The notes under the pieces are model-generated. The model did no database searches and was not told the origin of the DNA. It saw only the letters and a list, made by a program, of their open reading frames with translations. Shown here in pieces: positions 9,614 to 64,000 of a DNA stretch of 64,000 bases (positions within the stretch are counted from its first letter, which is position 1; every line of letters starts with the position of its first letter). The position numbers and the translations under genes were made by a program. Source of the stretch: Escherichia coli. GTDB taxonomy: Bacteria > Pseudomonadota > Gammaproteobacteria > Enterobacterales > Enterobacteriaceae. The stretch lies in the NCBI RefSeq assembly GCF_003991155.1, contig NZ_CP031293.1; one strand, written 5' to 3'.

Positions 9614-11182
9614 TTAGCGTGCCGGCTGAGTAGTCGTGGAAGACTGCTCAAAGTGATAGCGACCGGTTTTCAGGCTGCTTGGGCCGAGGCGTGCAAACTT
9701 GAACATTAAGAACAATTCTGCCACCAGGAACAGGGTATACAGGCCGCAAATCAGCACCATTGAGAAGATGAGATCGCCTGCGGTCAGTGACGAGTTCGCC
9801 ACAGCTGTCGGCAGCACTTCACCGATAGCCCACGGTTGGCGGCCATATTCAGCCACAAACCAGCCCGCTTCTACAGCAATCCACGGCAGCGGAATACCGT
9901 ACAGCGCGGCGCGCAGCAGCCATTTTTTCTCGCCAATGCGGTTGCGGATGACACTCCAGAAAGAGAGCGCGATGATTGCCAGCAGCAGGAAGCCACACGC
10001 CACCATGATACGGAACGCGAAGTACAGCGGCGCTACACGCGGAATGGAGTCTTTGGTTGCCTGTTGAATCTGCGCTTCAGTCGCATCAGCCACGTTTGGC
10101 GTATAGCGTTTCAGCAGCAGACCGTAACCGAGGTCTTTCTTCATGCTATTGAACTGGTCACGAACCGCCTGGTCGGTAGAACCAGAACGCAGTTGCTCGA
10201 GCAGAGAGTACGCCTTCATCCCGTTACGAATGCGTTCTTCATGCTGCACCATCAGTTCTTTCAGGCCGATAACTGGAGTATCCACGGAACGCGTTGCAAT
10301 GATGCCCAGCGCGTAAGGGATCTGGATCGCAAATTTGTTCGTCTCCTCTTCCTGATCAGGAATGCCGAACAGAGTAAAGGCAGCAGGCGCAGGTTGCGTT
10401 TCCCACTCGGCTTCAATAGCAGCCAGTTTGGTTTTCTGCACGTCGCCCATTTCGTAACCAGATTCATCACCCAGAACAATAACAGACAGAACGGCAGCCA
10501 TACCGAAGCTGGCAGCGATAGCAAAGGAGCGTTTAGCGAAGGCGAAGTCACGACCTTTCAGCATATACCATGCGCTGATACCGAGGATGAACATCGCGCC
10601 AGTCACATAACCAGACGCTACAGTGTGAACGAATTTCACCTGAGCAACCGGGTTAAGCACCAGCTCGGAGAAGCTCACCATCTCCATACGCATAGTTTCA
10701 AAGTTGAAATCGGACGCGATTGGGTTTTGCATCCAGCCGTTCGCAACCAGAATCCACAGTGCGGACAGGTTTGAACCGAGCGCCACCAGCCAGGTGACAC
10801 ACATATGCTGAACTTTACCCAGACGATCCCAACCGAAGAAGAACAGACCTACAAAGGTGGATTCGAGGAAGAAGGCCATTAGACCTTCGATTGCCAGCGG
10901 CGCACCGAAGATATCCCCTACATAGTGGGAATAGTAAGACCAGTTAGTCCCGAACTGGAACTCCATGGTCAGACCGGTAGCCACACCCAGAGCGAAGTTG
11001 ATACCAAACAACTTGCCCCAGAACTTGGTCATATCTTTATAAATCTGTTTGCCGGAAAGGACGTAGACCGTTTCCATAATGGCCAGCAGGAACGCCATAC
11101 CGAGCGTCAGTGGCACAAAAAGGAAGTGGTACATCGCGGTCAAGGCAAACTGTAAGCGCGACAGTTCGACTATATCTAACAT
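9614..11182 (-). CDS. cydA: Cytochrome bd-I ubiquinol oxidase subunit I
   Basis: ORF-track frame 9614..11185; second Met ([20 protein letters not shown]...) matches the 522-aa E. coli CydA. Confidence 0.95.
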
Positions 11183-11185
11183 CAT

Positions 11186-11987
11186 GACTCCTTGCTCATC
11201 GCATGAAGACTCCGAGAGTGAACCCCGTTAGAAAGGGTCACACGCATGCCCCAATACAAAATTATTTGCTCGCCTCTATCGTTGCCATTTCATCAAAAGA
11301 GGAAAAGACAATGATAAAAAAGTTACAAATATGTTAATGAATAAACCAAATTGATCCCGTAATTATATTACGCCGCAAAATCCTTACAATAAACAGGTTT
11401 TTATTGAGCAAATTTGCATTTTTCGACAGTGATCAATTTATAGCGAAATTGTCACGATCTCACCAATTTGATCTACGACAATTTATCGTGTTTTGCAGAT
11501 TTTTTTCAAGAATTAAAAATTGATTTATATCAAAACCAACCAAATATGTTAATTATGTATAAACCATAGATCATTGGTGATTTTATTGTTAATTTATTGT
11601 GAAATATTTATGCAACACAATTATTACAATGAAAAGGTATAGATAAAAAACCAGTGTTTTATTTAACAGAACCGCCTTATCCACTTTTTATAATACCAAT
11701 TGATTAGATTAGCCAATTTGTTGCTATTTTACATAACATATTTTTATCAAAGTTAATTGATTGTTGCCTTTATGAGCACCGGCCGTAAGCCCGTTATGTT
11801 ATTGTTTCATTAGTAATAATCACTTAAATGTATCGATGAAACAGGTATGACTTAGCGGGAGTGATTGTTTCTGAGTGAACAGAAACCACTTTCGCCTGAT
11901 AAATGAAAAATGAGCGATTTTTGCAAGTTAGTTTTTCTATAGCCGAGTACGCTCAGCGCCTCGCTTGATTACAATGAGGTTGCTGCT
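11186..11987 (-). promoter_or_regulatory. Long AT-rich cydA upstream region (expected multi-promoter, ArcA/FNR/H-NS-controlled cydAB regulatory region) merging into the accessory-island junction
   Basis: About 800 bp without a convincing ORF upstream of cydA, visibly AT-rich with several TTGAT-like half-sites. cydAB is known to have a long multi-promoter regulatory region; individual sites were not mapped. Confidence 0.45.
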
Positions 11988-45529: not shown

Positions 45530-46813
45530 ATGGCTGATACAAAAGCAAAACTCACCCTCAACGGGGACACAGCTGTTGAACTGGATGTGCTGAAAGGCAC
45601 GCTGGGTCAAGATGTTATTGATATCCGTACTCTCGGTTCAAAAGGTGTGTTCACCTTTGACCCAGGCTTCACTTCAACCGCATCCTGCGAATCTAAAATT
45701 ACTTTTATTGATGGTGATGAAGGTATTTTGCTGCACCGCGGTTTCCCGATCGATCAGCTGGCGACCGATTCTAACTACCTGGAAGTTTGTTACATCCTGC
45801 TGAATGGTGAAAAACCAACTCAGGAACAGTATGACGAATTTAAAACTACGGTGACCCGTCATACCATGATCCACGAGCAGATTACCCGTCTGTTCCATGC
45901 TTTCCGTCGCGACTCGCATCCAATGGCAGTCATGTGTGGTATTACCGGCGCGCTGGCGGCGTTCTATCACGACTCGCTGGATGTTAACAATCCTCGTCAT
46001 CGTGAAATTGCCGCGTTCCGCCTGCTGTCGAAAATGCCGACCATGGCCGCGATGTGTTACAAGTATTCCATTGGTCAGCCATTCGTTTACCCGCGCAACG
46101 ATCTCTCCTATGCCGGTAACTTCCTGAATATGATGTTCTCCACGCCGTGCGAACCGTATGAAGTTAATCCGATTCTGGAACGTGCTATGGACCGTATTCT
46201 GATCCTGCACGCTGACCATGAACAGAACGCCTCTACCTCCACCGTGCGTACCGCTGGCTCTTCGGGGGCGAACCCGTTTGCCTGTATCGCAGCAGGTATT
46301 GCTTCACTGTGGGGACCTGCGCACGGTGGTGCTAACGAAGCGGCGCTGAAAATGCTGGAAGAAATCAGTTCCGTTAAACACATTCCGGAATTTGTTCGTC
46401 GTGCGAAAGACAAAAATGACTCTTTCCGCCTGATGGGCTTCGGCCACCGCGTGTACAAAAATTACGACCCGCGCGCCACCGTAATGCGTGAAACCTGCCA
46501 TGAAGTTCTGAAAGAGCTGGGCACCAAAGATGACCTGCTGGAAGTGGCTATGGAGCTGGAAAACATCGCGCTGAACGACCCGTACTTTATCGAGAAAAAA
46601 CTGTACCCGAACGTCGATTTCTACTCTGGTATCATCCTGAAAGCGATGGGTATTCCGTCTTCTATGTTCACCGTGATCTTCGCGATGGCGCGTACCGTTG
46701 GCTGGATCGCCCACTGGAGCGAAATGCACAGTGACGGTATGAAGATTGCCCGTCCGCGTCAGCTTTACACCGGCTACGCGCAGCGTGATTTTAAGTCGGA
46801 TATTAAGAAGTAA
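45530..46813 (+). CDS. gltA: Citrate synthase (type II)
   Basis: 427-aa ORF matching E. coli GltA. Confidence 0.95.
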
Positions 46814-46830
46814 AAATGACACCGACAAAA

Positions 46831-46855
46831 CCCTGCGTGTTCACGCAGGGTTTTT
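46831..46855. terminator. Intrinsic terminator hairpin (ccctgcgtg-ttca-cgcaggg + T5) after gltA; A-run on the other side makes it plausibly bidirectional for the convergent TRAP operon
   Basis: Seen directly: aaaa-ccctgcgtgttcacgcaggg-ttttt. Confidence 0.7.
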
Positions 46856-46859
46856 AGTT

Positions 46860-48170
46860 CTACACCAACAGCAAAGATATTGCCGGGATATAGGTAATAA
46901 CCAACAGCAGTAAAATAAGACTAACCAGTAGTGGCACCGCTTCTCGCATAAATTGCCCGACAGAAACCTGCACGGTATTACATACCAGCAGCATCACCGT
47001 TCCGACAGGCGGTGATAACGTTCCTAACGATAAGTTGAGGATCATGATGATGCCAAAATGCACCGGATCAATGCCAAAATGAGCCACCACAGGTTTAAGT
47101 AATGGAACTAATATCAGCAGGATGGCACTACCTTCAAGAAACATGCCAAGCACCAGCAGCAATAGATTGATAATCAATAAAAAGACGTATTTATTATCAG
47201 TCAGAGATGTCACAAACTCCGCAACCGTGATACCTGCCCGCTCAAGGGAAAATATCCAGCCCAGCGCGGCACTCGCCATAATGATTAACATGACCGATGC
47301 CGTCGAACGCGCCGTCTCTGAGAGTGCTGTAAATACATGGCTGATTTTCAGTTCGCGATAAATTACAAAACCAATAAACATCACCAATAATACTGCTACG
47401 GCTCCAGCTTCCGTTGGCGTAAAGATATTTGCCCGAATACCACCGATAACCGCAACAATTAAGAACAGTGCTGGCCAGGCCTGCACCAGCGCCACTGACA
47501 CTTCTTTCGGTTTTGGCCAGTGTTCGCTGGAAGGTTTTAAACCGCGCCGAATAGCTACCAGCCATACAGTGACAATCAACATGGCGGAACACAGCAGACC
47601 GGGCAGGATCCCGGCCATAAACATGGAGCCGATGGAGACATCCGCCACCAGTCCGTAAAGGATCAGTGCAATACCCGGTGGAATAATTGGTGTAATCAGC
47701 GAACCACTTGCCGTTATCGCCGCCGCAAAGCCACGGGAATAACCTTTCTGTTCCATTTCCGGCACCATCATGCGCGATAACATCGCAGCATCCGCCAGGT
47801 TTGAGGCGCTAACGCCGCCCATCATGGTACTGACCAGAATATTAGCCCCACCCAGACCACCGCGCATTCTGCCAATCAACACGTTGGCAATTTGCAAAAT
47901 ACGCGCGGCAATACCGGTATAGCTCATTAACGTGCCTAATAAGATAAAAAATGGAATAGCTAACAGCGAAGGGGTTTGCGTCGTGGCAATCAAACGCTGA
48001 ATTGCTACCATTAACGGCACATTTGAATAGCAAAGGAAGTAGGTCAGAATGCCGCAAAACATCGCCAGCCATACCGGCATATTGATAAATAAACAGATGA
48101 ACATAAGCGGAATGATCATTAGCCAGTTATCCAGCCAGCTTCCCGCCAGTAATTCACTCAATGCTGTCAT
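46860..48170 (-). CDS. TRAP transporter large permease subunit (DctM family)
   Basis: 436-aa polytopic membrane protein; ATGA overlap with the upstream small-permease gene; family call from size, hydrophobicity and the DctP/Q/M gene triad. Confidence 0.85.
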   Translation of the reverse strand: MTALSELLAGSWLDNWLMIIPLMFICLFINMPVWLAMFCGILTYFLCYSNVPLMVAIQRLIATTQTPSLLAIPFFILLGTLMSYTGIAARILQIANVLIGRMRGGLGGANILVSTMMGGVSASNLADAAMLSRMMVPEMEQKGYSRGFAAAITASGSLITPIIPPGIALILYGLVADVSIGSMFMAGILPGLLCSAMLIVTVWLVAIRRGLKPSSEHWPKPKEVSVALVQAWPALFLIVAVIGGIRANIFTPTEAGAVAVLLVMFIGFVIYRELKISHVFTALSETARSTASVMLIIMASAALGWIFSLERAGITVAEFVTSLTDNKYVFLLIINLLLLVLGMFLEGSAILLILVPLLKPVVAHFGIDPVHFGIIMILNLSLGTLSPPVGTVMLLVCNTVQVSVGQFMREAVPLLVSLILLLLVITYIPAISLLLV

Positions 48171-48631
48171 TATTCACCTTCCTTGCGTGGCGTTTTCTTG
48201 ATCAGGTGTAAGGCAGTAAAACAGGCGATACCGATTGCACCAACCGTGACCGCAATATCGATCCAAAACCAGGATATTTTTAATATTTGCGTGGTTTTAA
48301 ATGCTGTTCCGGCAGCTAATTTCCATGCTGACCAAGCCATCACACTCAGTAAAACAATAGATATCAGAGAGACAAATAACGTTAAAACACGTTGCACGCG
48401 TGGTGTCAGTGCATCAGCTAAAAATGGAATCGACAAATGGGTATTATCCCGCTCGGCAACGACCGCACCAAACATGACTACCCAAATCATTAATAAACCG
48501 GAAACCTCTTCTGTCCACTGTAATGGCATATGAAAACAGTAACGCATTATTACCGCAGCAATGGTCATGATTACCAATATAAAGAGCGTTAATACCGCAG
48601 CAACTTCAATCATTTTCCCTAAAAGACGCAT
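48170..48631 (-). CDS. TRAP transporter small permease subunit (DctQ family)
   Basis: ORF-track frame extends to 48667; start set to the internal Met (MRLLGKMIEVAAV...) with an AGAGG SD; start is uncertain. Four predicted TM segments. Confidence 0.75.
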   Translation of the reverse strand: MRLLGKMIEVAAVLTLFILVIMTIAAVIMRYCFHMPLQWTEEVSGLLMIWVVMFGAVVAERDNTHLSIPFLADALTPRVQRVLTLFVSLISIVLLSVMAWSAWKLAAGTAFKTTQILKISWFWIDIAVTVGAIGIACFTALHLIKKTPRKEGE

Positions 48632-48690
48632 AAACACCTCTGCTCTTAACGGTCGGTGCCGAAACACCGACCAGTCCTTATGCCATGAAG

Positions 48691-49659
48691 TTATTTCAGC
48701 TGTTGCTGAATAGTGTCATACAAACCAGGGGTCCATTCCGGGAATTGTTGATAGACTTTTAAGGCTTTTTCTTTGAAAGGGGCGACGTCAGGATAGATAA
48801 TTTCCACGCCCTGCTCCTGCATGGTTTTCAACATTGTCGCATCCTGCTCAGTGGTAATTTTCTGGCTATATAAACCAGCTTCATACGCTGTCTGGTGAAT
48901 AATATCTAACTGCGCAGGTGTCAGGGTACTGAAAAACGCTTCACCACCCAACCATAATGATGTATTGGTCAGATAGTTCACCATTGACAGATATTTCGCC
49001 TGCTCATGCAGTTTTTGCCCATACAGAACAGAAACCGGGTTTTCCACACCATCGATCATCCCCTGCGTCAGCGCCGGATAAACGTCTCCCAGCGGCATTG
49101 GCGTTGGGGTTGCGCCCATTGCTTCAATGGCTTTAATCTGCATAACGTTATTCGGCACGCGGATCTTCATCCCTTTCAGGTCTTCAGGTGTACGAATCGG
49201 TTTTTTAGCAATGATCTGCCTGGTACCGTACAGATAGTTGCTCATGACAATATGCACACCTTTTTCCCGTAGTTTCTGTTCTTTTTGTTTAAACCAGTCA
49301 CTGGCATAAATCGCAAACAGTTTCTGCGGATCTTCGGTTAAATAAGGCCCAAACAATATTCCCAGGTCTGCATCGTAGTCAGTTAAAAATCCCACATCAC
49401 TGATGGTGATAATATTCATCCCCATCAACGCTTGTTCAGTAATATCTTGTTTAGAACCTAACTGTGAACTTGGGTAAAGTTCGAAAACAATATCTCCATT
49501 GCTTTTTTTCTTCACAAGTTCTGCCCAGTGCTTCACTACTGTATCCGCTGGCTCGCCGGGGTTACTTTCATAGGCGATTTTGATAGTTACCGGTGCGGCA
49601 TTCAGCATCGGACTAAATAAAGCGAAAAGAAATAAAAGTGGTGTCAGTAATTTTTTCAT
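48691..49659 (-). CDS. TRAP transporter substrate-binding protein (DctP family), signal peptide present
   Basis: 322-aa ORF with N-terminal signal peptide MKKLLTPLLFLFALFSPMLNA and DctP-like length and composition. Confidence 0.85.
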   Translation of the reverse strand: MKKLLTPLLFLFALFSPMLNAAPVTIKIAYESNPGEPADTVVKHWAELVKKKSNGDIVFELYPSSQLGSKQDITEQALMGMNIITISDVGFLTDYDADLGILFGPYLTEDPQKLFAIYASDWFKQKEQKLREKGVHIVMSNYLYGTRQIIAKKPIRTPEDLKGMKIRVPNNVMQIKAIEAMGATPTPMPLGDVYPALTQGMIDGVENPVSVLYGQKLHEQAKYLSMVNYLTNTSLWLGGEAFFSTLTPAQLDIIHQTAYEAGLYSQKITTEQDATMLKTMQEQGVEIIYPDVAPFKEKALKVYQQFPEWTPGLYDTIQQQLK

Positions 49660-49686
49660 TATTATTACCTGTAAGAGCTTTATCGA

Positions 49687-50883
49687 TTAACGGGGATCTG
49701 CCCGACAGACTGCACTTTTGCTGTAATCAAATGCTTTATACGTTAAAACAAACTCCTGATGTTCCAGTCGTTCTGCGGCACAATATTGACCGTTGGCGAC
49801 ATGTTCAATCACCTGCATAATATCGTCTGCAATATCGTCGAGCGTTGCGCCTTCGCTAATTACACGACCGGCATTAACGTCCATATCGTCAGATAAATGC
49901 TCCCACGTCTGCGGGTTATTACACACTTTAATAATAGGAGCGATCACTGAACCAATAACTGAACCGCGACCTGTGGTAAATAACACCATATGACAGCCAG
50001 AGGCGATAAGTTCCAGTGCTTCTGAGGAATCGTTAATATTCGGATACCCAAAACGAGGTTCACCATCAGGCACCACGTCCATCAACCAAAGCCCAGGAAA
50101 GGGCGTTTGTTGCGTCGGCAAAATAACGCCAGCAATCAGCGCATCGCCCGACTTGGTATAAGCCCCAAGGGATTTTTCTTCCTGAGTGGTTAAGCCGCCT
50201 TCAGCATTACCATTAGAAAAACTCCCCAGCCCCATCAAACTGTAATAACGTTCGGCTTTTGCCATTGCCACTTCGATGGCATCACGTGCCTGCGAACTAG
50301 CCGCGCGCGACATCATATGCTGCTCACAACCAAGCAACTCACCGCTTTCTTCAAAAATACAGGTAGCCCCTTTCTCCAGCAGTTGGTCAAAGGCACGTCC
50401 TACTGCCGGGTTACCCGTGATACCACTGGTGCCATCGGAGCCACCGCAGATAGTACCAACCACCAGGTCGCTCCAGTTCAGGATACAACGCGGTGTATCC
50501 GCAAGCTGTTCCAGCATTTCAGCGACCAACTGCTTACCCAGAGTAATGGTGTTGGTCGTGCCTTTATTTTCCTGAATGACCAGCGTATGGCACGGTCGCC
50601 CACTTTCTCGTACTTCTTGCTCCAGCCGACGGCGATCAAAATTCTCGCACCCCAGCGAAATAATCAGTACACCACCTACGTTGCTATGAATCGCCAGATT
50701 TTTTACCAGACGATAGCCATAATCGCTGGGATAACAACCTGAAAAACCAAAATACTGCACGTCGTGACAAGGAAATCCTTCGGCAATCTTTTTAGCGACA
50801 TGGCTGGCACACTCCACCATAAAGATTACCTGCACAGTATTACGAATACCCGGTCGACCATTTTGCCGTACATAACCTTCCAT
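49687..50883 (-). CDS. UxaA-family (altronate dehydratase / SuyB-like) dehydratase, large subunit
   Basis: 398-aa ORF starting MEGYVRQNGRPGIRNTVQVIFMVECASHVA, resembling the C-terminal catalytic portion of UxaA/GarD-type dehydratases; ATGA overlap with the upstream SAF-domain gene. Confidence 0.75.
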   Translation of the reverse strand: MEGYVRQNGRPGIRNTVQVIFMVECASHVAKKIAEGFPCHDVQYFGFSGCYPSDYGYRLVKNLAIHSNVGGVLIISLGCENFDRRRLEQEVRESGRPCHTLVIQENKGTTNTITLGKQLVAEMLEQLADTPRCILNWSDLVVGTICGGSDGTSGITGNPAVGRAFDQLLEKGATCIFEESGELLGCEQHMMSRAASSQARDAIEVAMAKAERYYSLMGLGSFSNGNAEGGLTTQEEKSLGAYTKSGDALIAGVILPTQQTPFPGLWLMDVVPDGEPRFGYPNINDSSEALELIASGCHMVLFTTGRGSVIGSVIAPIIKVCNNPQTWEHLSDDMDVNAGRVISEGATLDDIADDIMQVIEHVANGQYCAAERLEHQEFVLTYKAFDYSKSAVCRADPR

Positions 50884-51194
50884 TATGCTTTTTCCTCTGG
50901 CTGATAGCCGGCATCATCATGATGAAAAATGGCGATGGCATTGCTGGCAAGATTATGGGAATGCACATGTTCACCCATGGCAATATCGCGAGTGGCGTGT
51001 CCGATAATGGCGCCGTATTTCAGAATCGAATCACCATTGTTCAGCGCTTCGCAGGCCAGTTTGTGACCCAGGGTAACGGAACTACAGGCCACCATTTCCC
51101 CCTCATCCCACCAGACAATATCGCCACTGGCGATGTCATTCAGCGCGACTACACAGTTATCTTTGGCATGTAGCTTTAACGCACGTTTGCGCAT
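50883..51194 (-). CDS. UxaA-family dehydratase small subunit (SAF domain; SuyA-like)
   Basis: ORF-track frame extends to 51299; start set to MRKRALKLHAKDNCVVAL (GGAGG SD 4 nt upstream). Sequence resembles the N-terminal SAF domain of UxaA/GarD, giving a split two-subunit dehydratase. Confidence 0.7.
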   Translation of the reverse strand: MRKRALKLHAKDNCVVALNDIASGDIVWWDEGEMVACSSVTLGHKLACEALNNGDSILKYGAIIGHATRDIAMGEHVHSHNLASNAIAIFHHDDAGYQPEEKA

Positions 51195-51208
51195 AATTCC
51201 TCCGTACA

Positions 51209-51964
51209 TCAGAAGCCGATCAATGCGCCGCCATCCACCACCAGCACCTGACCACTGACAAATGCCGCTGCGTCTGAAGCCAGATAAACCGCAGCCCAAC
51301 CGATATCTTCCGGCTTGCCGAATTTTTTCATCGGTGTCCGCCCCAGGATTTTGTTACGGCGTTCGTCATCACCTTCAATGGCCTTACGCAACATTGGTGT
51401 ATCGATCCAGCCTGGCGCAATACCGTTGACGCGAATCCCATGAACGGCAAGCTCCGTGGTCATACCGCGAATCATGCCGAGATAGGCTGACTTCGCTGCG
51501 CTGTAGCCAGTAACCAGAGGCTGCCCAAGAAATGAGGTCATCGATGCAGTAAAAAGCACACAGCCTTGACCGCGTTGTTTCATATGCGGCACCAGCGCTT
51601 TGGTTAACGCAAATGCGCCGACTACGTGAACGTCGAGTACTGACTCAAAATCACTGACGCTCATCTCTTCAATCGGTTTTTTGCAGTGATTGCCTGCGTT
51701 ATTGACCAGGATATCGATAGCCCCGTGTTCGCTAATAAGCGCATCAACTTTTTCCTGCGCGGCTGCGGTATCCCCGACATCCATTTGTATCCAACTGGCC
51801 TGCGACCCCAATGTTCCGGCGGTCGCTTGCGCCAGCTCGCCGTTCAGGTCAGCAATAATGACCTTCGCCCCGCTGACTATCATGCATTTCGCCATTGCCA
51901 GCCCCAGCCCACTGGCTGCACCGGTGATCAACGCGGTTTTGTTATGTAAAGAAAAAGCATTCAT
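51209..51964 (-). CDS. Short-chain dehydrogenase/reductase (SDR) family oxidoreductase
   Basis: 251-aa ORF with TGAASGLG cofactor-binding motif, NNAG, and catalytic YSAAK. Confidence 0.85.
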   Translation of the reverse strand: MNAFSLHNKTALITGAASGLGLAMAKCMIVSGAKVIIADLNGELAQATAGTLGSQASWIQMDVGDTAAAQEKVDALISEHGAIDILVNNAGNHCKKPIEEMSVSDFESVLDVHVVGAFALTKALVPHMKQRGQGCVLFTASMTSFLGQPLVTGYSAAKSAYLGMIRGMTTELAVHGIRVNGIAPGWIDTPMLRKAIEGDDERRNKILGRTPMKKFGKPEDIGWAAVYLASDAAAFVSGQVLVVDGGALIGF

Positions 51965-51975
51965 GGTGTCGCTCC

Positions 51976-52989
51976 TTAAAGGTCAATGAGGATTTTGGTA
52001 TACGCGCCGGGATCACTTGCCCAGTCGCTAAAAGCATGATCAGCCTGTTCCAGCGGGTAGTGAGCACTCACCAGATTGCTGACCGGATAACGCCCGGACT
52101 CCATCAATGCCAGCACGGCACGAAAATCCGCCACGGTGGCATTGCGCGAACCACGGATATCCAGTTCTTTCATCAGGAACTGCGCACTCTGATAACTCAC
52201 TGGCTGTTTGGCGTAACCGACATAAACCACACGACCGCTAAACGCCACCAACCCTGTAGCCTGTTCAATGGTTTGTTGATTACCCACCGCTTCAATCACC
52301 ACTTCCGGGCCGCGACCGTCATTTAACAGCACCAGTTCTGCCGCCACGTCACATTGCTGCGAATTAAGAAAACGTTGCGCACCGCATTCCAGGGCAATGT
52401 TCTGCTTGCGATCATCAATATCGATAGCAATTACGCGCGCCCCCATGGCGGATGCCGCGGCGATAGCGCCAAGGCCAATTACCCCACAACCGATAACTGC
52501 GACCCATTCACCCACATTAATTTGCGCACGTCTGGCCGCATGTAGTCCCACGGCCAGCGGTTCTACCAGCGCTAACTCATCAACACTTAAGGCATTACAG
52601 ACAATGACTTTATGTGCAGGCATCGTCAGTTGTTGCGCCATCCCCCCCTGACGTTGCACACCAAGAGTTTGGTTGTTTTTACAGGCGTTAGGACGACCGC
52701 TCAGACAGGAGCTGCACACGCCACACTCAGTGCAAGGCAGAACGACCACCCGGTCACCTGGCTTGATCGCCCCTGCCATATCGCCAGTTGCCAGCACCGT
52801 GCCGCCAATTTCATGCCCCGGAATACAGGGATAATTAACCAGCGGATTCAGTCCCCGCCATGTATTGAGGTCAGAACCACACAGTCCGACACGCTCAACA
52901 TTGATTAGCACTTCTCCTTTACCGCAGACAGGTTCGGGGATATCAACAAATCGCGCCTGACTTCCCTGCTCAATGGTTAATGCCTTCAT
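51976..52989 (-). CDS. Zinc-dependent medium-chain alcohol/polyol dehydrogenase (MDR family)
   Basis: 337-aa ORF with GHE.G zinc-site motif, structural-zinc Cys cluster (CTECGVCSSCLSGRPNAC) and GCGVIGLG Rossmann motif. Confidence 0.85.
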   Translation of the reverse strand: MKALTIEQGSQARFVDIPEPVCGKGEVLINVERVGLCGSDLNTWRGLNPLVNYPCIPGHEIGGTVLATGDMAGAIKPGDRVVVLPCTECGVCSSCLSGRPNACKNNQTLGVQRQGGMAQQLTMPAHKVIVCNALSVDELALVEPLAVGLHAARRAQINVGEWVAVIGCGVIGLGAIAAASAMGARVIAIDIDDRKQNIALECGAQRFLNSQQCDVAAELVLLNDGRGPEVVIEAVGNQQTIEQATGLVAFSGRVVYVGYAKQPVSYQSAQFLMKELDIRGSRNATVADFRAVLALMESGRYPVSNLVSAHYPLEQADHAFSDWASDPGAYTKILIDL

Positions 52990-53001
52990 TCATTGCTCTC
53001 C

Positions 53002-53688
53002 TTACATTACGCCGAAGGTTTCAAAGGCCTGTACCGTGCTCATGCCATCACTGATGGCTTTGCGCACTTCACTTTCAGTTGCCACTTTTTCCAGGGCCTG
53101 GGTAATAACTTCTTTCTCAACAACCTGGGGAATAATCAGTAATCCATCACGATCACCAAACACGATATCGCCCGGATTCACCCGCACGCCGTGAAATTCA
53201 ATAGGTACGCCGAAGTCGATGACCTTGCCGCGCGGACCTTGATCTTGTGCGTAAGTGCCATGACAAAAGGTGGGAAATTTCAATTCAAGAATTTCAGCAG
53301 AGTCACGGGCGTAACCATCGAGTACCGCACCTGCTGCTTTCAGATGCATGGCACGGGTAGACATCAACCCGCCCCACAAGGCATAGCGCAGAGAGCTGCC
53401 CGTAGTGATGTAAACATCGTTCTCTTTGAGGGCATCCAGCGCTTCAAACATGATGCCAAACGGTTTTTCGCCAATCGCCGTCTTACCCGACGTCGATTTG
53501 GTTTCGTAAACGTCCGACTCCAGCACCGGCATTGCCCGGCCTGCCACCACCGTATTCACATCCAGCGGCTTGATTGCCGGAGAAACAAACTGGTGCATAT
53601 AGCCCAGCGTGTCGAGAATATCGCCAACCACGGCGGTAAATAGCCGGGTTTTCATCAAAGCAAAAAGTTCGTTATCACTCTTCCACAT
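53002..53688 (-). CDS. RraA-like family protein (class II 4-hydroxy-2-oxoacid aldolase / RraA fold)
   Basis: ORF-track frame extends to 53745 (apparent GTG start); first ATG at 53688 chosen (228 aa). Family call from overall resemblance to RraA/HMG-CHA aldolase proteins; moderate certainty. Confidence 0.65.
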   Translation of the reverse strand: MWKSDNELFALMKTRLFTAVVGDILDTLGYMHQFVSPAIKPLDVNTVVAGRAMPVLESDVYETKSTSGKTAIGEKPFGIMFEALDALKENDVYITTGSSLRYALWGGLMSTRAMHLKAAGAVLDGYARDSAEILELKFPTFCHGTYAQDQGPRGKVIDFGVPIEFHGVRVNPGDIVFGDRDGLLIIPQVVEKEVITQALEKVATESEVRKAISDGMSTVQAFETFGVM

Positions 53689-53951
53689 TATTTTCACCCT
53701 GTAAGCCTGTTTAACAGGTTTACAGGGTAAGGAGAAAAAGCGCACAATACTGCGAAGGGCGTCACGAAAAAGTTGTGTATTTACTATTTCTTCGCCACTC
53801 TTTCACACAATATGTCTTTGATTCGCACTGCATGGCGGGCGCACAGGCGCAGTAGTCTATTGATAATCAAGGGTTCTGGAGGAAAATATGAAGGATACAG
53901 TCCCGGTATTCTGGATTTTACCGACCAGGAAAAAGTACAACAGGAGTAAAA

Positions 53952-54665
53952 ATGAGTGAGAGTGCGTTATTGACCAGCGTAACGTTATCGTCACAGGTCA
54001 AAAATCATATTCTTAATCTGATCGCCGAACAAAAATTGACACCGGGGATGCCAGTTCCCAGTGAAATTCAGTTGATTCAGAAATTGGGCGTCAGTCGGGG
54101 TATTGTGCGTGAGGCCTATCGTTCACTTGCCGCCCTGGGGATTCTGGAAACGCACAGCGGTAAAGTGCCACGGATCAAAAAATTTGATGATGAAGTGCTG
54201 CGCGTGGTGTTTGGATTTGCCCTGGCGACCGAACAAGTAACAACAGAGCAAATTCTTCAAGTACGTCGCTGGCTAGAGTTGGGCGTTGTGGAAGCTGCTG
54301 CCCGTAATGGCGGAGAAGAAGATTTTGCTAACCTACGGGCTGAAATGGCAAAAATCCGCGAACAGTTCGATGATGTCGAAAGCTTTATCACCCATGACAT
54401 CCGCTTCCATCAGTTACTCGCCGTTGCCTCAAAAAATCCGCTTTTTATGATGTTATTGCAGGCATTACATCAGCAATTGCGGCAATCCATCCAGGAGGGA
54501 TTAAACGCCCAAAGCGATCAGAAAGAGTATGGCAATCACATCATCACACTACACCAGAAAATCTGCGACGCTGTGTGTGCCAGAGATGTCGAAACGGCGA
54601 CTCAAGCCATGAAATCACACTTCGACAGCCCGGTCAGTGCACTGATCAATAATTCCTCGCCATAA
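53952..54665 (+). CDS. GntR-family transcriptional regulator (FadR/FCD subfamily)
   Basis: 237-aa ORF with N-terminal GntR wHTH (...LIQKLGVSRGIVREAYRSLAALGILE...) and helical C-terminal FCD-like domain; divergent from the catabolic operon; AGGAG SD. Confidence 0.85.
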   Translation: MSESALLTSVTLSSQVKNHILNLIAEQKLTPGMPVPSEIQLIQKLGVSRGIVREAYRSLAALGILETHSGKVPRIKKFDDEVLRVVFGFALATEQVTTEQILQVRRWLELGVVEAAARNGGEEDFANLRAEMAKIREQFDDVESFITHDIRFHQLLAVASKNPLFMMLLQALHQQLRQSIQEGLNAQSDQKEYGNHIITLHQKICDAVCARDVETATQAMKSHFDSPVSALINNSSP

Positions 54666-54844
54666 GACTTATTTCAGTTCAATCGTTTACTCTTCCCTCT
54701 TTTACAAATGAGAGGGAGACAACGGTACTTAATACGCCCTTTAGCCAAAATCTGTCTTTTTCTTGATTACCGCTATTTTTTCGTTGAGGCGCATTCTTTA
54801 TGCTGTATCGATACACCAAAGGTAAGTTAAACAGGGAGTGACGG

Positions 54845-61581: not shown

Positions 61582-63000
61582 TCAGGCTCCTTTCCTCGCT
61601 TCTTCGTACGCTGCCAGCGTTCGCAGCCTTGCCTCTTTGTGATCAACTATCGGTTGCGGATAATCCAGCGTCACACCTGCTTTCTGCGCCCACTTCCACG
61701 GCTCATGCACCACTTTCCCTGGCACATCGCGCAGCTCCGGGAGCCACTGGCGGATAAATTCGCCTTCGCGGTCAAATTTCTCACCCTGAGTTGTCGGGTT
61801 GAAAATACGAAAATACGGCGCTGCATCGGTTCCGGTTGAAGCGGCCCACTGCCAGCCACCGTTATTGGCTGCCAAATCACCATCAATCAGCTGCGACATG
61901 AAATATCGCTCACCTTCGCGCCAGTCGATCAATAAATCTTTCACCAAAAAACTGGCTGTAATCATCCGTAGCCGGTTATGCATCCAGCCAGTGCTGTTAA
62001 GCTGACGCATGGCAGCATCAACAATCGGGTATCCCGTTTTGCCTTCCTGCCAGGCCTTTAAATGCGCGGAATTGCTCTGCCACTGCACGCGGTCGGTCCA
62101 GACAATAAACGGACGATGTTTACACAGCGAGGGGTAATACGTTATCAGATGACGGTAAAACTCGCGCCAGATCAGCTCATTAAGCCAGATACTACCGGCC
62201 CCACCGTCCAGCGCCTGCGGCTGTTCCGCCAACAGGCGATGCAAACACTGGCGAGGCGATAACCCGCCCGTTGCCAGGCTGGCGGACAAACGGCTGGTGC
62301 CTTCTACCGCAGGGAAATCTCGCTGTTGCTCATACTCTCCGGCACCGTTCTGGCAAAACTGGCGTAATTGCGCAATCGCCGCTTTCTCTTCCACCGGGAA
62401 ATGCGCAGTATCGAAAGGCTGACGAGGATAATTCAGCGTAATGGATGGCGCGGGCTTTATCGATCCGCTACTACGAACTTTTGGTGCAGCGACGCACTCC
62501 GGCATCCCTTCCCGCAGCCGTTTCAGCCAGGCATTTTGAAAAGGCGTAAAGACTTTGTACATCTCATGATTGCCAGTCATCACCGCCCCCGGCGGCAGGA
62601 TCACGCTGTCGTCAAATCCTTCACACACCACGTTACGCAGCGTTCTCTCAACCTGCACATCCCGCGCCCGCTCATTCACCTCATACTGATAGTTATAAAA
62701 CAGATGGGTAACACGATTTTCCGCGCACACCTGTTTAACTATTTCGACGCTGGCGGCAAAGTCATCCACTTCATGAAACAGTAAAGGAATGCCTTTTTCC
62801 GCCAGCGCAATTTGTAGCCCATTCAGTTGAGCATTGATAAGTTCAGCCTGACGCGGCGACATGTTATGCGCCGCCCACTGGCGTGGTGTAGCGATATACA
62901 ACGCCAGCACGCGCGCAGACGAATTGCGGCAGGCGGCAGCCAGCGCGAGATTATCATGCTGACGTAAATCCTGGCGAAACCAGACCAGATGGGTAGTCAT
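61582..63000 (-). CDS. phr: Deoxyribodipyrimidine photolyase
   Basis: 472-aa ORF matching E. coli Phr (MTTHLVWFRQDLR...). Confidence 0.95.
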   Translation of the reverse strand: MTTHLVWFRQDLRQHDNLALAAACRNSSARVLALYIATPRQWAAHNMSPRQAELINAQLNGLQIALAEKGIPLLFHEVDDFAASVEIVKQVCAENRVTHLFYNYQYEVNERARDVQVERTLRNVVCEGFDDSVILPPGAVMTGNHEMYKVFTPFQNAWLKRLREGMPECVAAPKVRSSGSIKPAPSITLNYPRQPFDTAHFPVEEKAAIAQLRQFCQNGAGEYEQQRDFPAVEGTSRLSASLATGGLSPRQCLHRLLAEQPQALDGGAGSIWLNELIWREFYRHLITYYPSLCKHRPFIVWTDRVQWQSNSAHLKAWQEGKTGYPIVDAAMRQLNSTGWMHNRLRMITASFLVKDLLIDWREGERYFMSQLIDGDLAANNGGWQWAASTGTDAAPYFRIFNPTTQGEKFDREGEFIRQWLPELRDVPGKVVHEPWKWAQKAGVTLDYPQPIVDHKEARLRTLAAYEEARKGA

Positions 63001-63506
63001 AAAACTCCTGAATGGCGCAAGTTAATCACACGCGGCCAAAGTTCGAAATAACGCTGCCCTGAAAGCCAGGCGTCAGGATAAAGCGCCATATAGTGTTTGA
63101 TACGCATCAGCGGCGCAAGAAGCGGTTGCTCGCCACCGCGATAACTGTCGATAAGCGCCGCCAGCTGCTGGCGTTCTGTGGAATCAATATGAGGGCGAAA
63201 ATAACCCTGAACGTGCATCAAAACATTGGTGTGGTCACGTCGGTTGGCGGGGTGAGAAAGCAAAACAACTACGCGTTGGCGGTACTGGTTGTAATAGTCA
63301 TCCAGATTTTGCCACTGGTGAATATCAGCCACGAACGGGCCAAGTTTGCGGTACTCGGGCTGGGAATGGGCCAGAAAGACGAGTTTATAGCGGCTGTGAT
63401 AATCGTTGAGTGCCCCGCGCGTTAGTCCTCGATCTTTGAGATTGTGTAACTCATGCAAAGCAAAAATGCGGATAAGGGTGCTGTCATCAAAAAGTTGTTG
63501 ATTCAT
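62997..63506 (-). CDS. ybgA: DUF1722-family protein YbgA (co-transcribed with phr)
   Basis: 169-aa ORF whose stop overlaps the phr start (ATGA), as in the E. coli ybgA-phr operon. Confidence 0.85.
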   Translation of the reverse strand: MNQQLFDDSTLIRIFALHELHNLKDRGLTRGALNDYHSRYKLVFLAHSQPEYRKLGPFVADIHQWQNLDDYYNQYRQRVVVLLSHPANRRDHTNVLMHVQGYFRPHIDSTERQQLAALIDSYRGGEQPLLAPLMRIKHYMALYPDAWLSGQRYFELWPRVINLRHSGVL

Positions 63507-63606
63507 TACTGCTCCTGAACGGTTTACAGGAGTAAGTGTAGACGCCGAAAAAAGAAAACCGCCAGCGTTTCCACCGGCGGTTTTCTTTAAACGTCATGTT
63601 TGGCAA

Positions 63607-63813
63607 TCAGTAAAAATCACCGGTTGCCTTTTCGGCCTGATCCATCCACACCGGTTTATCGCTGGTTTTCGACCAGACGCGGTGCAGGTAGCTGTAAAAG
63701 CGGGCGCGGTCTTTCCAGAAAAGCATGAAAGGCAGCGCCAGAACGCCCGCTGCAACCGCATAAGTACGGCGTAAAAAGATAAGCCATGCAGGATATTCTC
63801 TGTAGAGTTCCAT
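63607..63813 (-). CDS. ybfA: Small membrane protein YbfA-like (68 aa)
   Basis: 68-aa [38 protein letters not shown]... consistent with E. coli YbfA by recall. Confidence 0.65.
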
Positions 63814-64000
63814 ACTTTTCTCCCCCTTTTGTATCTACCCGGTGAATGGCACCGGAAAAATGAATTTGTTTATCTGATGAAAATAGTACCGCCTTTTGTG
63901 TAATTTTACTACTCATCCGACCACTTATTTTTGTTTATTGATGGTTTATTTACATTCACTGTGTAATTAAGTTACACAAAAGTTAAATTAATACTAAACA

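Follow-up and report, generated by a model that had tools for sequence, protein, structure and literature searches.

Near the end of the window, by which we mean the whole stretch of 64,000 nucleotides (64 kb) of Escherichia coli DNA analyzed here, lie three genes on the minus strand, ybfA, ybgA and phrB. These genes and the elements between them were delineated as follows:

63607..63813, minus strand: ybfA, encoding a 68-aa DUF2517 small membrane protein, with ATG at 63813-63811 and TGA at 63609-63607 (ORF list, Pfam, RefSeq)
63547..63588, minus strand: predicted intrinsic terminator of ybfA, with a 17-bp stem (63572-63588 / 63551-63567), a GAAA loop (63568-63571) and a U-tract to about 63547 (RNA fold)
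63545..63554, no strand: unoccupied RhsC insertion point, an interval of at most 10 bp, most likely 63545-63551 (blastn and junction alignments)
63507..63544, minus strand: 5' leader of ybgA, common to occupied and empty alleles (CGTCTACACTTACTCCTGTAAACCG..CAGGAGCAGTA) (alignment to K-12)
62997..63506, minus strand: ybgA, encoding a 169-aa DUF1722 protein (ORF list, Pfam, NCBIfam, RefSeq)
61582..63000, minus strand: phrB, encoding deoxyribodipyrimidine photolyase, the downstream gene of the ybgA-phr pair (Pfam, NCBIfam, RefSeq)

Gene identities and the ybfA-ybgA spacer

An earlier note on this DNA had proposed, from the letters alone, that the 68-aa ORF is YbfA, and sequence searches confirmed this identity. 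The ORF matched the Pfam profile PF10725 (DUF2517) with an e-value of 2.9e-34 (117.1 bits against a cutoff of 25), with residues 4-63 covering profile positions 1-60 of 61, and its amino-acid sequence is 100% identical to that of K-12 b0699; RefSeq names the product 'YbfA family protein' (WP_000424924.1). YbgA was recovered both by the NCBIfam equivalog NF007549 (340.7 bits, cutoff 237) and by Pfam DUF1722 (E 8.3e-35), and shows 95% amino-acid identity between the window and K-12. The photolyase contains the Pfam domains FAD_binding_7 and DNA_photolyase and matches the NCBIfam equivalog NF007955 with 956 bits, and its start overlaps the ybgA stop by 4 bp. The genome of E. coli 2016C-3878 (NZ_CP029747.1) is 100% identical to the window, and RefSeq places ybfA, ybgA and phrB at the same coordinates. 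In the genome record identical to the window kdpF lies on the opposite strand, 312 bp past ybfA; the kdpFABC control region starts beyond 63813, and the start of kdpF falls just outside the window. This end of the window is oriented opposite to the K-12 map.

The spacer between ybfA and ybgA (63507-63606) is exactly 100 bp long. The distance of about 100 bp given previously thus stands, but it had been measured to the wrong end of ybgA: both genes are on the minus strand with ybfA upstream, and the spacer leads to the ybgA start rather than to its stop. The last 38 bp of the spacer (63507-63544) constitute the ybgA leader, which contains a ribosome-binding site, AGGAG, at 63512-63516 and aligns to the K-12 DNA that lies between the right end of the Rhs element and ybgA. 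As occupied strains keep no more than these 38 bp of native DNA ahead of ybgA, the promoter serving ybgA-phr would have to differ between the two alleles.

Upstream of ybfA starts an 86-aa ORF (63656-63916, minus strand; start MSSKITQKAVLFSS...) that crosses ybfA out of frame. It was considered as an N-terminal extension of YbfA, but it is out of frame in the window and was taken as non-coding. In 23 of 80 species surveyed, chiefly Citrobacter along with E. whittamii and Escherichia sp. MOD1-EC7003, the same peptide-like sequence shares the reading frame of YbfA and is joined to it, giving 101-103 aa. It could represent conserved regulatory DNA, or an alternative longer form of YbfA in those species.

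The remainder of the spacer is dominated by a hairpin that begins 18 nt past the ybfA stop and ends in the tail UUUUCUUUUUU. Folding of the 100-nt minus-strand spacer RNA yielded -42.7 kcal/mol with a z-score of -6.2, and none of 200 shuffled sequences folded as well. The hairpin is kept in all the Escherichia alleles that we aligned, and two changes specific to the window (A>G and C>U) retain pairing as wobble pairs. A scan for promoter and terminator patterns missed the hairpin and found no promoter within the spacer, and an Rfam scan of 63300-64000 returned only chance-level matches, all far below the gathering scores. The predicted fold and its conservation suggest that the hairpin serves as a rho-independent terminator that ends ybfA transcription.

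The RhsC insertion point is unoccupied in the window

In K-12 MG1655 a distance of 9,660 bp lies between ybfA (729134-729340) and ybgA (739001-739510), with the order ybfA, rhsC, ybfB, ybfO, ybfC, ybfQ, ybfL, ybfD, ybgA. The earlier note was hence right in placing an Rhs block here in K-12, the block comprising seven genes in MG1655. The two loci occupy the same chromosomal site and share the flanking kdpFABC, ybfA, ybgA and phr genes, with homology extending on the left up to the terminator and on the right from 38 bp before the ybgA ATG. In blastn comparisons window 63555-64000 aligned to K-12 728947-729392 (95.3%) and window 61607-63544 to K-12 738963-740900 (94.0%), so that the flanks are only 94-95% identical. 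Between these segments the 9,570 bp of K-12 729393-738962 have no counterpart in the window, where just 10 bases (63545-63554) remain unaligned.

The insertion point coincides with the 3' foot of the ybfA terminator hairpin. In the junction alignments the left edge of the K-12 insert lies at the terminator T-tract (...GGCGGTTTTTTGTAT/CAGGAAG..., the slash marking the junction) and the right edge (...TTTCTCAA/CGTCTACAC) lies 38-39 bp before the ybgA ATG; no direct repeats longer than about 4 bp were detected flanking the insert. Its composition is classic for Rhs and foreign to the flanks, with a GC content of 57-66% in the core and 32-42% in the tips and the H-repeat, against about 50% in the flanking DNA. 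At the same site E. coli O157:H7 has an Rhs core gene, ybfC, immunity genes and an ISAs1 element, and a ybfD-like H-repeat/ISAs1 transposase is present in both K-12 and O157.

None of this was recovered from the window, in agreement with the proposed absence of the Rhs block. K-12 RhsC gave no tblastn match at E<=1e-3 against the whole 64 kb, and K-12 YbfD, the H-repeat/ISAs1 transposase, likewise had no tblastn match there. A remnant of the element leader (CAGGAAGATGTTCAGA...) is absent after the ybfA terminator; the window spacer does not align with the leader of K-12, E. albertii or E. whittamii, and aligns instead to empty alleles.

Distribution of the occupied and empty states

Using YbfA as the query we scanned one genome per Enterobacteriaceae species and obtained 80 loci, a set in which the type genomes of E. 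fergusonii, E. marmotae and E. ruysiae are not represented. Within 1.5 kb after ybfA we found ybgA-phr in 33 of the 80 species and phr alone in 37; the remaining loci include four that are cut off by the end of the contig and five that differ in other ways. A homologue of RhsC was detectable only in E. albertii, where 4.2 kb align to K-12 with 91.6% nucleotide identity. Citrobacter, Salmonella, Enterobacter, Klebsiella, Kluyvera and Trabulsiella resemble the window in having ybfA followed by ybgA-phr or phr without Rhs. Since ybfA directly precedes (ybgA-)phr in 70 of the 80 species, the Rhs-free adjacency is, judging from these gene orders, the ancestral arrangement of Enterobacteriaceae.

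Beyond this conserved order the ybgA gene itself varies. Many other Enterobacteriaceae possess a 319-aa ybgA homologue, which unites 2-thiouracil desulfurase with DUF1722, or no ybgA, whereas Escherichia has only the 169-aa DUF1722 form. In Citrobacter sp. MGH106 (positions 10303-11262 of locus L016), for example, the 319-aa fusion combines PF04463 and DUF1722, and Escherichia YbgA corresponds to its C-terminal DUF1722 half only. In 37 species no ybgA intervenes between ybfA and phr.

An empty junction, with a spacer of 101 bp, also occurs in E69 and SCPM-O-B-8794, two genomes that bear the label E. coli and are 6-10% divergent at this locus. In the window, UM146, E69 and SCPM-O-B-8794 the empty alleles are collinear across the junction, with spacers of 100-101 bp, and no scar or Rhs remnant was found at the junctions of these four. 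This bears on the reading that a resident RhsC was excised or deleted in the window lineage, leaving ybfA beside ybgA. Rhs elements are repeats and known substrates for rearrangement. Against such a deletion in situ, the window junction is collinear at every base with empty junctions found in other species and retains an intact terminator and ybgA leader, and around the K-12 element there is no direct repeat above about 4 bp that would allow precise excision. Furthermore, the window flanks are 5-7% divergent from the occupied type of K-12 and O157; flanks resembling K-12 would be expected after a recent deletion of a K-12-like element, and the window does not have them. We consequently regard deletion in situ as very unlikely, even though gene loss at rhs loci has been reported by Jackson et al. 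2009 (PMC2935791).

The occupied state also extends beyond E. coli. The exact left junction of K-12 recurs in E. albertii, E. whittamii and Escherichia sp. MOD1-EC7003, and the insertion is therefore older than E. coli. In E. whittamii the insertion point of K-12 and the first ~197 bp of the element leader are followed by a gene for VgrG (Phage_GPD, E 3.6e-66; Phage_base_V; Gp5_trimer_C) where K-12 has rhsC, and the window lacks all of these. This vgrG (positions 9840-11441 of locus L006) is apparently frameshifted near its 5' end in the assembly used; a 65-aa ORF at the start of the insert had no Pfam match, and the adjacent frame matches VgrG. Escherichia sp. MOD1-EC7003 (positions 10400-11632 of locus L008) combines the K-12 RhsC insertion point and leader with different cargo, namely an AT-rich stretch without long ORFs and then ISAs1/H-repeat fragments at the contig end. 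On the evidence of these junctions both the occupied and the empty states persist across Escherichia species, and the polymorphism is old.

The same two states were counted among the complete E. coli genomes that gave a match, 5,424 in number, in percentages that mirror the composition of the database rather than natural frequencies. The contiguous ybfA-ybgA arrangement was seen in 1,310 genomes (24%), B2 strains such as UM146 and ST131 among them, the K-12-type ybfA-leader-rhs junction in 3,704 (68%), and another arrangement, neither empty nor K-12-type, in about 410 (8%), among which there may be vgrG-linked, IS-disrupted or deleted versions. In about 4,100 E. coli genomes the alignment breaks at the very point where K-12 does (query positions 545/556). 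A few of the contiguous genomes have small insertions such as IS1; E. coli DETEC-S586 (NZ_CP116074.1), for instance, has IS1 in an otherwise empty ybfA-ybgA region. Across 61600-64000 (2.4 kb) the window has 100% identity to about 49 independent complete genomes. Given these genomes and the 1,310 contiguous junctions, together with the DUF2517 match and the identity to K-12 YbfA reported above, we attach virtually no credence to an artefact, be it the assembly collapse of a repeat or a 68-aa ORF other than YbfA, and we found nothing in support of either.

The presence or absence of Rhs at this site is thus a common polymorphism, and one already published. The rhs 'position 5' (kdpA...phr) of Jackson et al. 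2009 (PMC2935791) is the ybfA-ybgA site, and the same study described a group of pathogenic strains without the clade I rhs expansion and inferred that ancestral E. coli had an rhs at position 5, because E. albertii has one. Our results agree with theirs in that the insertion is old. The window strain, being without the RhsC cassette, is missing a module for contact-dependent competition, one of several such modules that are polymorphic in E. coli. Hill et al. are said to have found in 1995 that the presence and location of Rhs track the ECOR clonal structure.

Haplotypes of the flanks and the origin of the empty allele

The phylogroup B2 empty junction (UM146, ST131, NC101) shares with the window ybfA, the 100-bp spacer with the terminator and ybgA-phrB, and is the closest flank haplotype to the window within 0.5 kb. 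It differs in a nucleotide divergence of 2-4% at the junction and in that, farther off, the window is more similar to K-12 and O157. The identities underlying this comparison are:

Window versus UM146 (empty): left proximal ~450 bp, 97.8%; right proximal 550 bp, 96.2%; 3 kb distal, 97.4%
Window versus K-12 (occupied): left proximal ~450 bp, 95.1%; right proximal 550 bp, 93.6%; 3 kb distal, 98.5%
K-12 versus O157 (both occupied): left proximal ~450 bp, 99.1%; right proximal 550 bp, 96.7%; 3 kb distal, 99.0%

Near the junction the window groups with the B2 empty allele, and 3 kb off it is nearer to K-12 and O157 (98.4-98.5%) than to UM146, a contrast to be read with caution as segments of ~500 bp amount to 10-20 site differences in an unusually diverse region. 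On its left flank the SCPM-O-B-8794 empty allele resembles K-12 more closely than it does the window. The two classes diverge by 5-7% in the ~0.5 kb adjoining the junction, against a background of 1.5-2.5%.

The surrounding region is itself variable. Pairs drawn from the window, UM146, K-12 and O157 are 91-96% identical in ybgA-phr (61600-63544), versus 97.4-99% at a distance of a few kb. Unusual diversity also marks the kdp operon beyond the window, with any two E. coli strains showing 91-99% identity across the kdp-phr region, and the divergence of ybgA-phrB among E. coli approaches that to other Escherichia species (88-91%).

Taken at the level of the allele, we believe that the window very probably carries the uninterrupted, ancestral-type form of the ybfA-ybgA junction, with the RhsC site unoccupied, and that this is an old haplotype rather than the product of a deletion in situ. 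The end of ybfA is followed by a strong predicted rho-independent terminator, 38 bp and then ybgA-phrB, and occupied strains have, between the terminator U-tract and the ybgA leader, a composite Rhs element in which a GC-rich rhs core gene is combined with immunity genes, toxin tips that are AT-rich, and ISAs1/H-repeat. The window strain lacks the RhsC toxin/immunity cassette, very probably with no deletion having occurred in situ, and its empty junction would be a haplotype akin to the B2 empty allele that was either inherited or gained in one piece through homologous recombination. The empty allele itself was presumably never interrupted, an uninterrupted descent that is weakened for the lineage by the age of the insertion, which predates E. 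coli, so that the window lineage could have had occupied ancestors. The suggestion in the earlier note of an ancestral, Rhs-free state is accordingly upheld for the allele, which is collinear with two divergent Escherichia genomes and follows the family-wide gene order, but may not hold for the lineage in view of the rhs-bearing ancestor inferred in the literature (PMC2935791).

This distinction gives room to a history in which an ancestor of the window strain had RhsC and the locus was exchanged, through homologous recombination, for the empty allele of another strain. Such a loss from the lineage is compatible with an uninterrupted allele and differs only in the history of the strain; we consider it a credible alternative, though on balance not the one to be expected. 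The left junction shared by E. albertii, E. whittamii, MOD1-EC7003 and 68% of E. coli implies that occupancy predates E. coli, and the published inference of an occupied ancestral E. coli (PMC2935791) points in the same direction. A K-12/O157-like background at 3 kb combined with 0.5 kb resembling the B2 empty allele at the junction is also the pattern of a short import. Conversely, the identity to the B2 empty allele is only 96-98% and no recent donor was identified, and in the 91-99% patchwork of the kdp-phr region an old polymorphism that has sorted among strains would account for the pattern just as well.

More tentatively, the occupied and empty states might constitute an ancient trans-species polymorphism, each linked to its own ~0.5-kb haplotype and maintained or shuffled by recombination, possibly with balancing selection on the carriage of Rhs toxin/immunity genes; we think this less likely than not. 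If it were true, the same selection would also raise the diversity of ybgA-phr, the photolyase genes next to the site.

The uninterrupted ancestral-type allele has little importance other than for bookkeeping, but it does provide a clean definition of the empty RhsC site at the level of single bases. A scar-free empty allele with its own haplotype also suggests that absence is not simply loss in situ, and thereby qualifies the published view of an occupied ancestor.

Other structural differences from K-12

The window had also been described as a mosaic differing from K-12 at three or more points, and blastn against K-12 bore this out with three structural differences, located at the RhsC site, 46777-54755 and 11559-35130. 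The 64-kb window is therefore distinguished from K-12 by three insertion or replacement events and not by point divergence alone. An array of lysine and valine tRNAs (1383-2086) that appeared rearranged relative to K-12 in the blast output was rejected as a further difference, as it contains the same seven tRNAs as K-12.

The segment 46777-54755 (8.0 kb), from abrB to gltA, stands in place of the ybgOPQD fimbrial operon of K-12 (747859-753221). It is annotated with a GntR regulator, an RraA-family protein, a Zn-ADH, an SDR, two UxaA-family hydrolase genes and a TRAP transporter, and looks like a sugar-acid catabolic island. The segment 11559-35130 (23.6 kb), from sucD to cydA, stands in place of mngR-mngA-mngB (K-12 765149-771084). 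Its annotated genes include RtcB, the hut operon (hutU, hutI, hutG, HAL), a LysR regulator and cobO, in addition to a class I fumarase, a dicarboxylate symporter, methylaspartate mutase and ammonia-lyase genes (glutamate fermentation), IS1 and two hypothetical genes.
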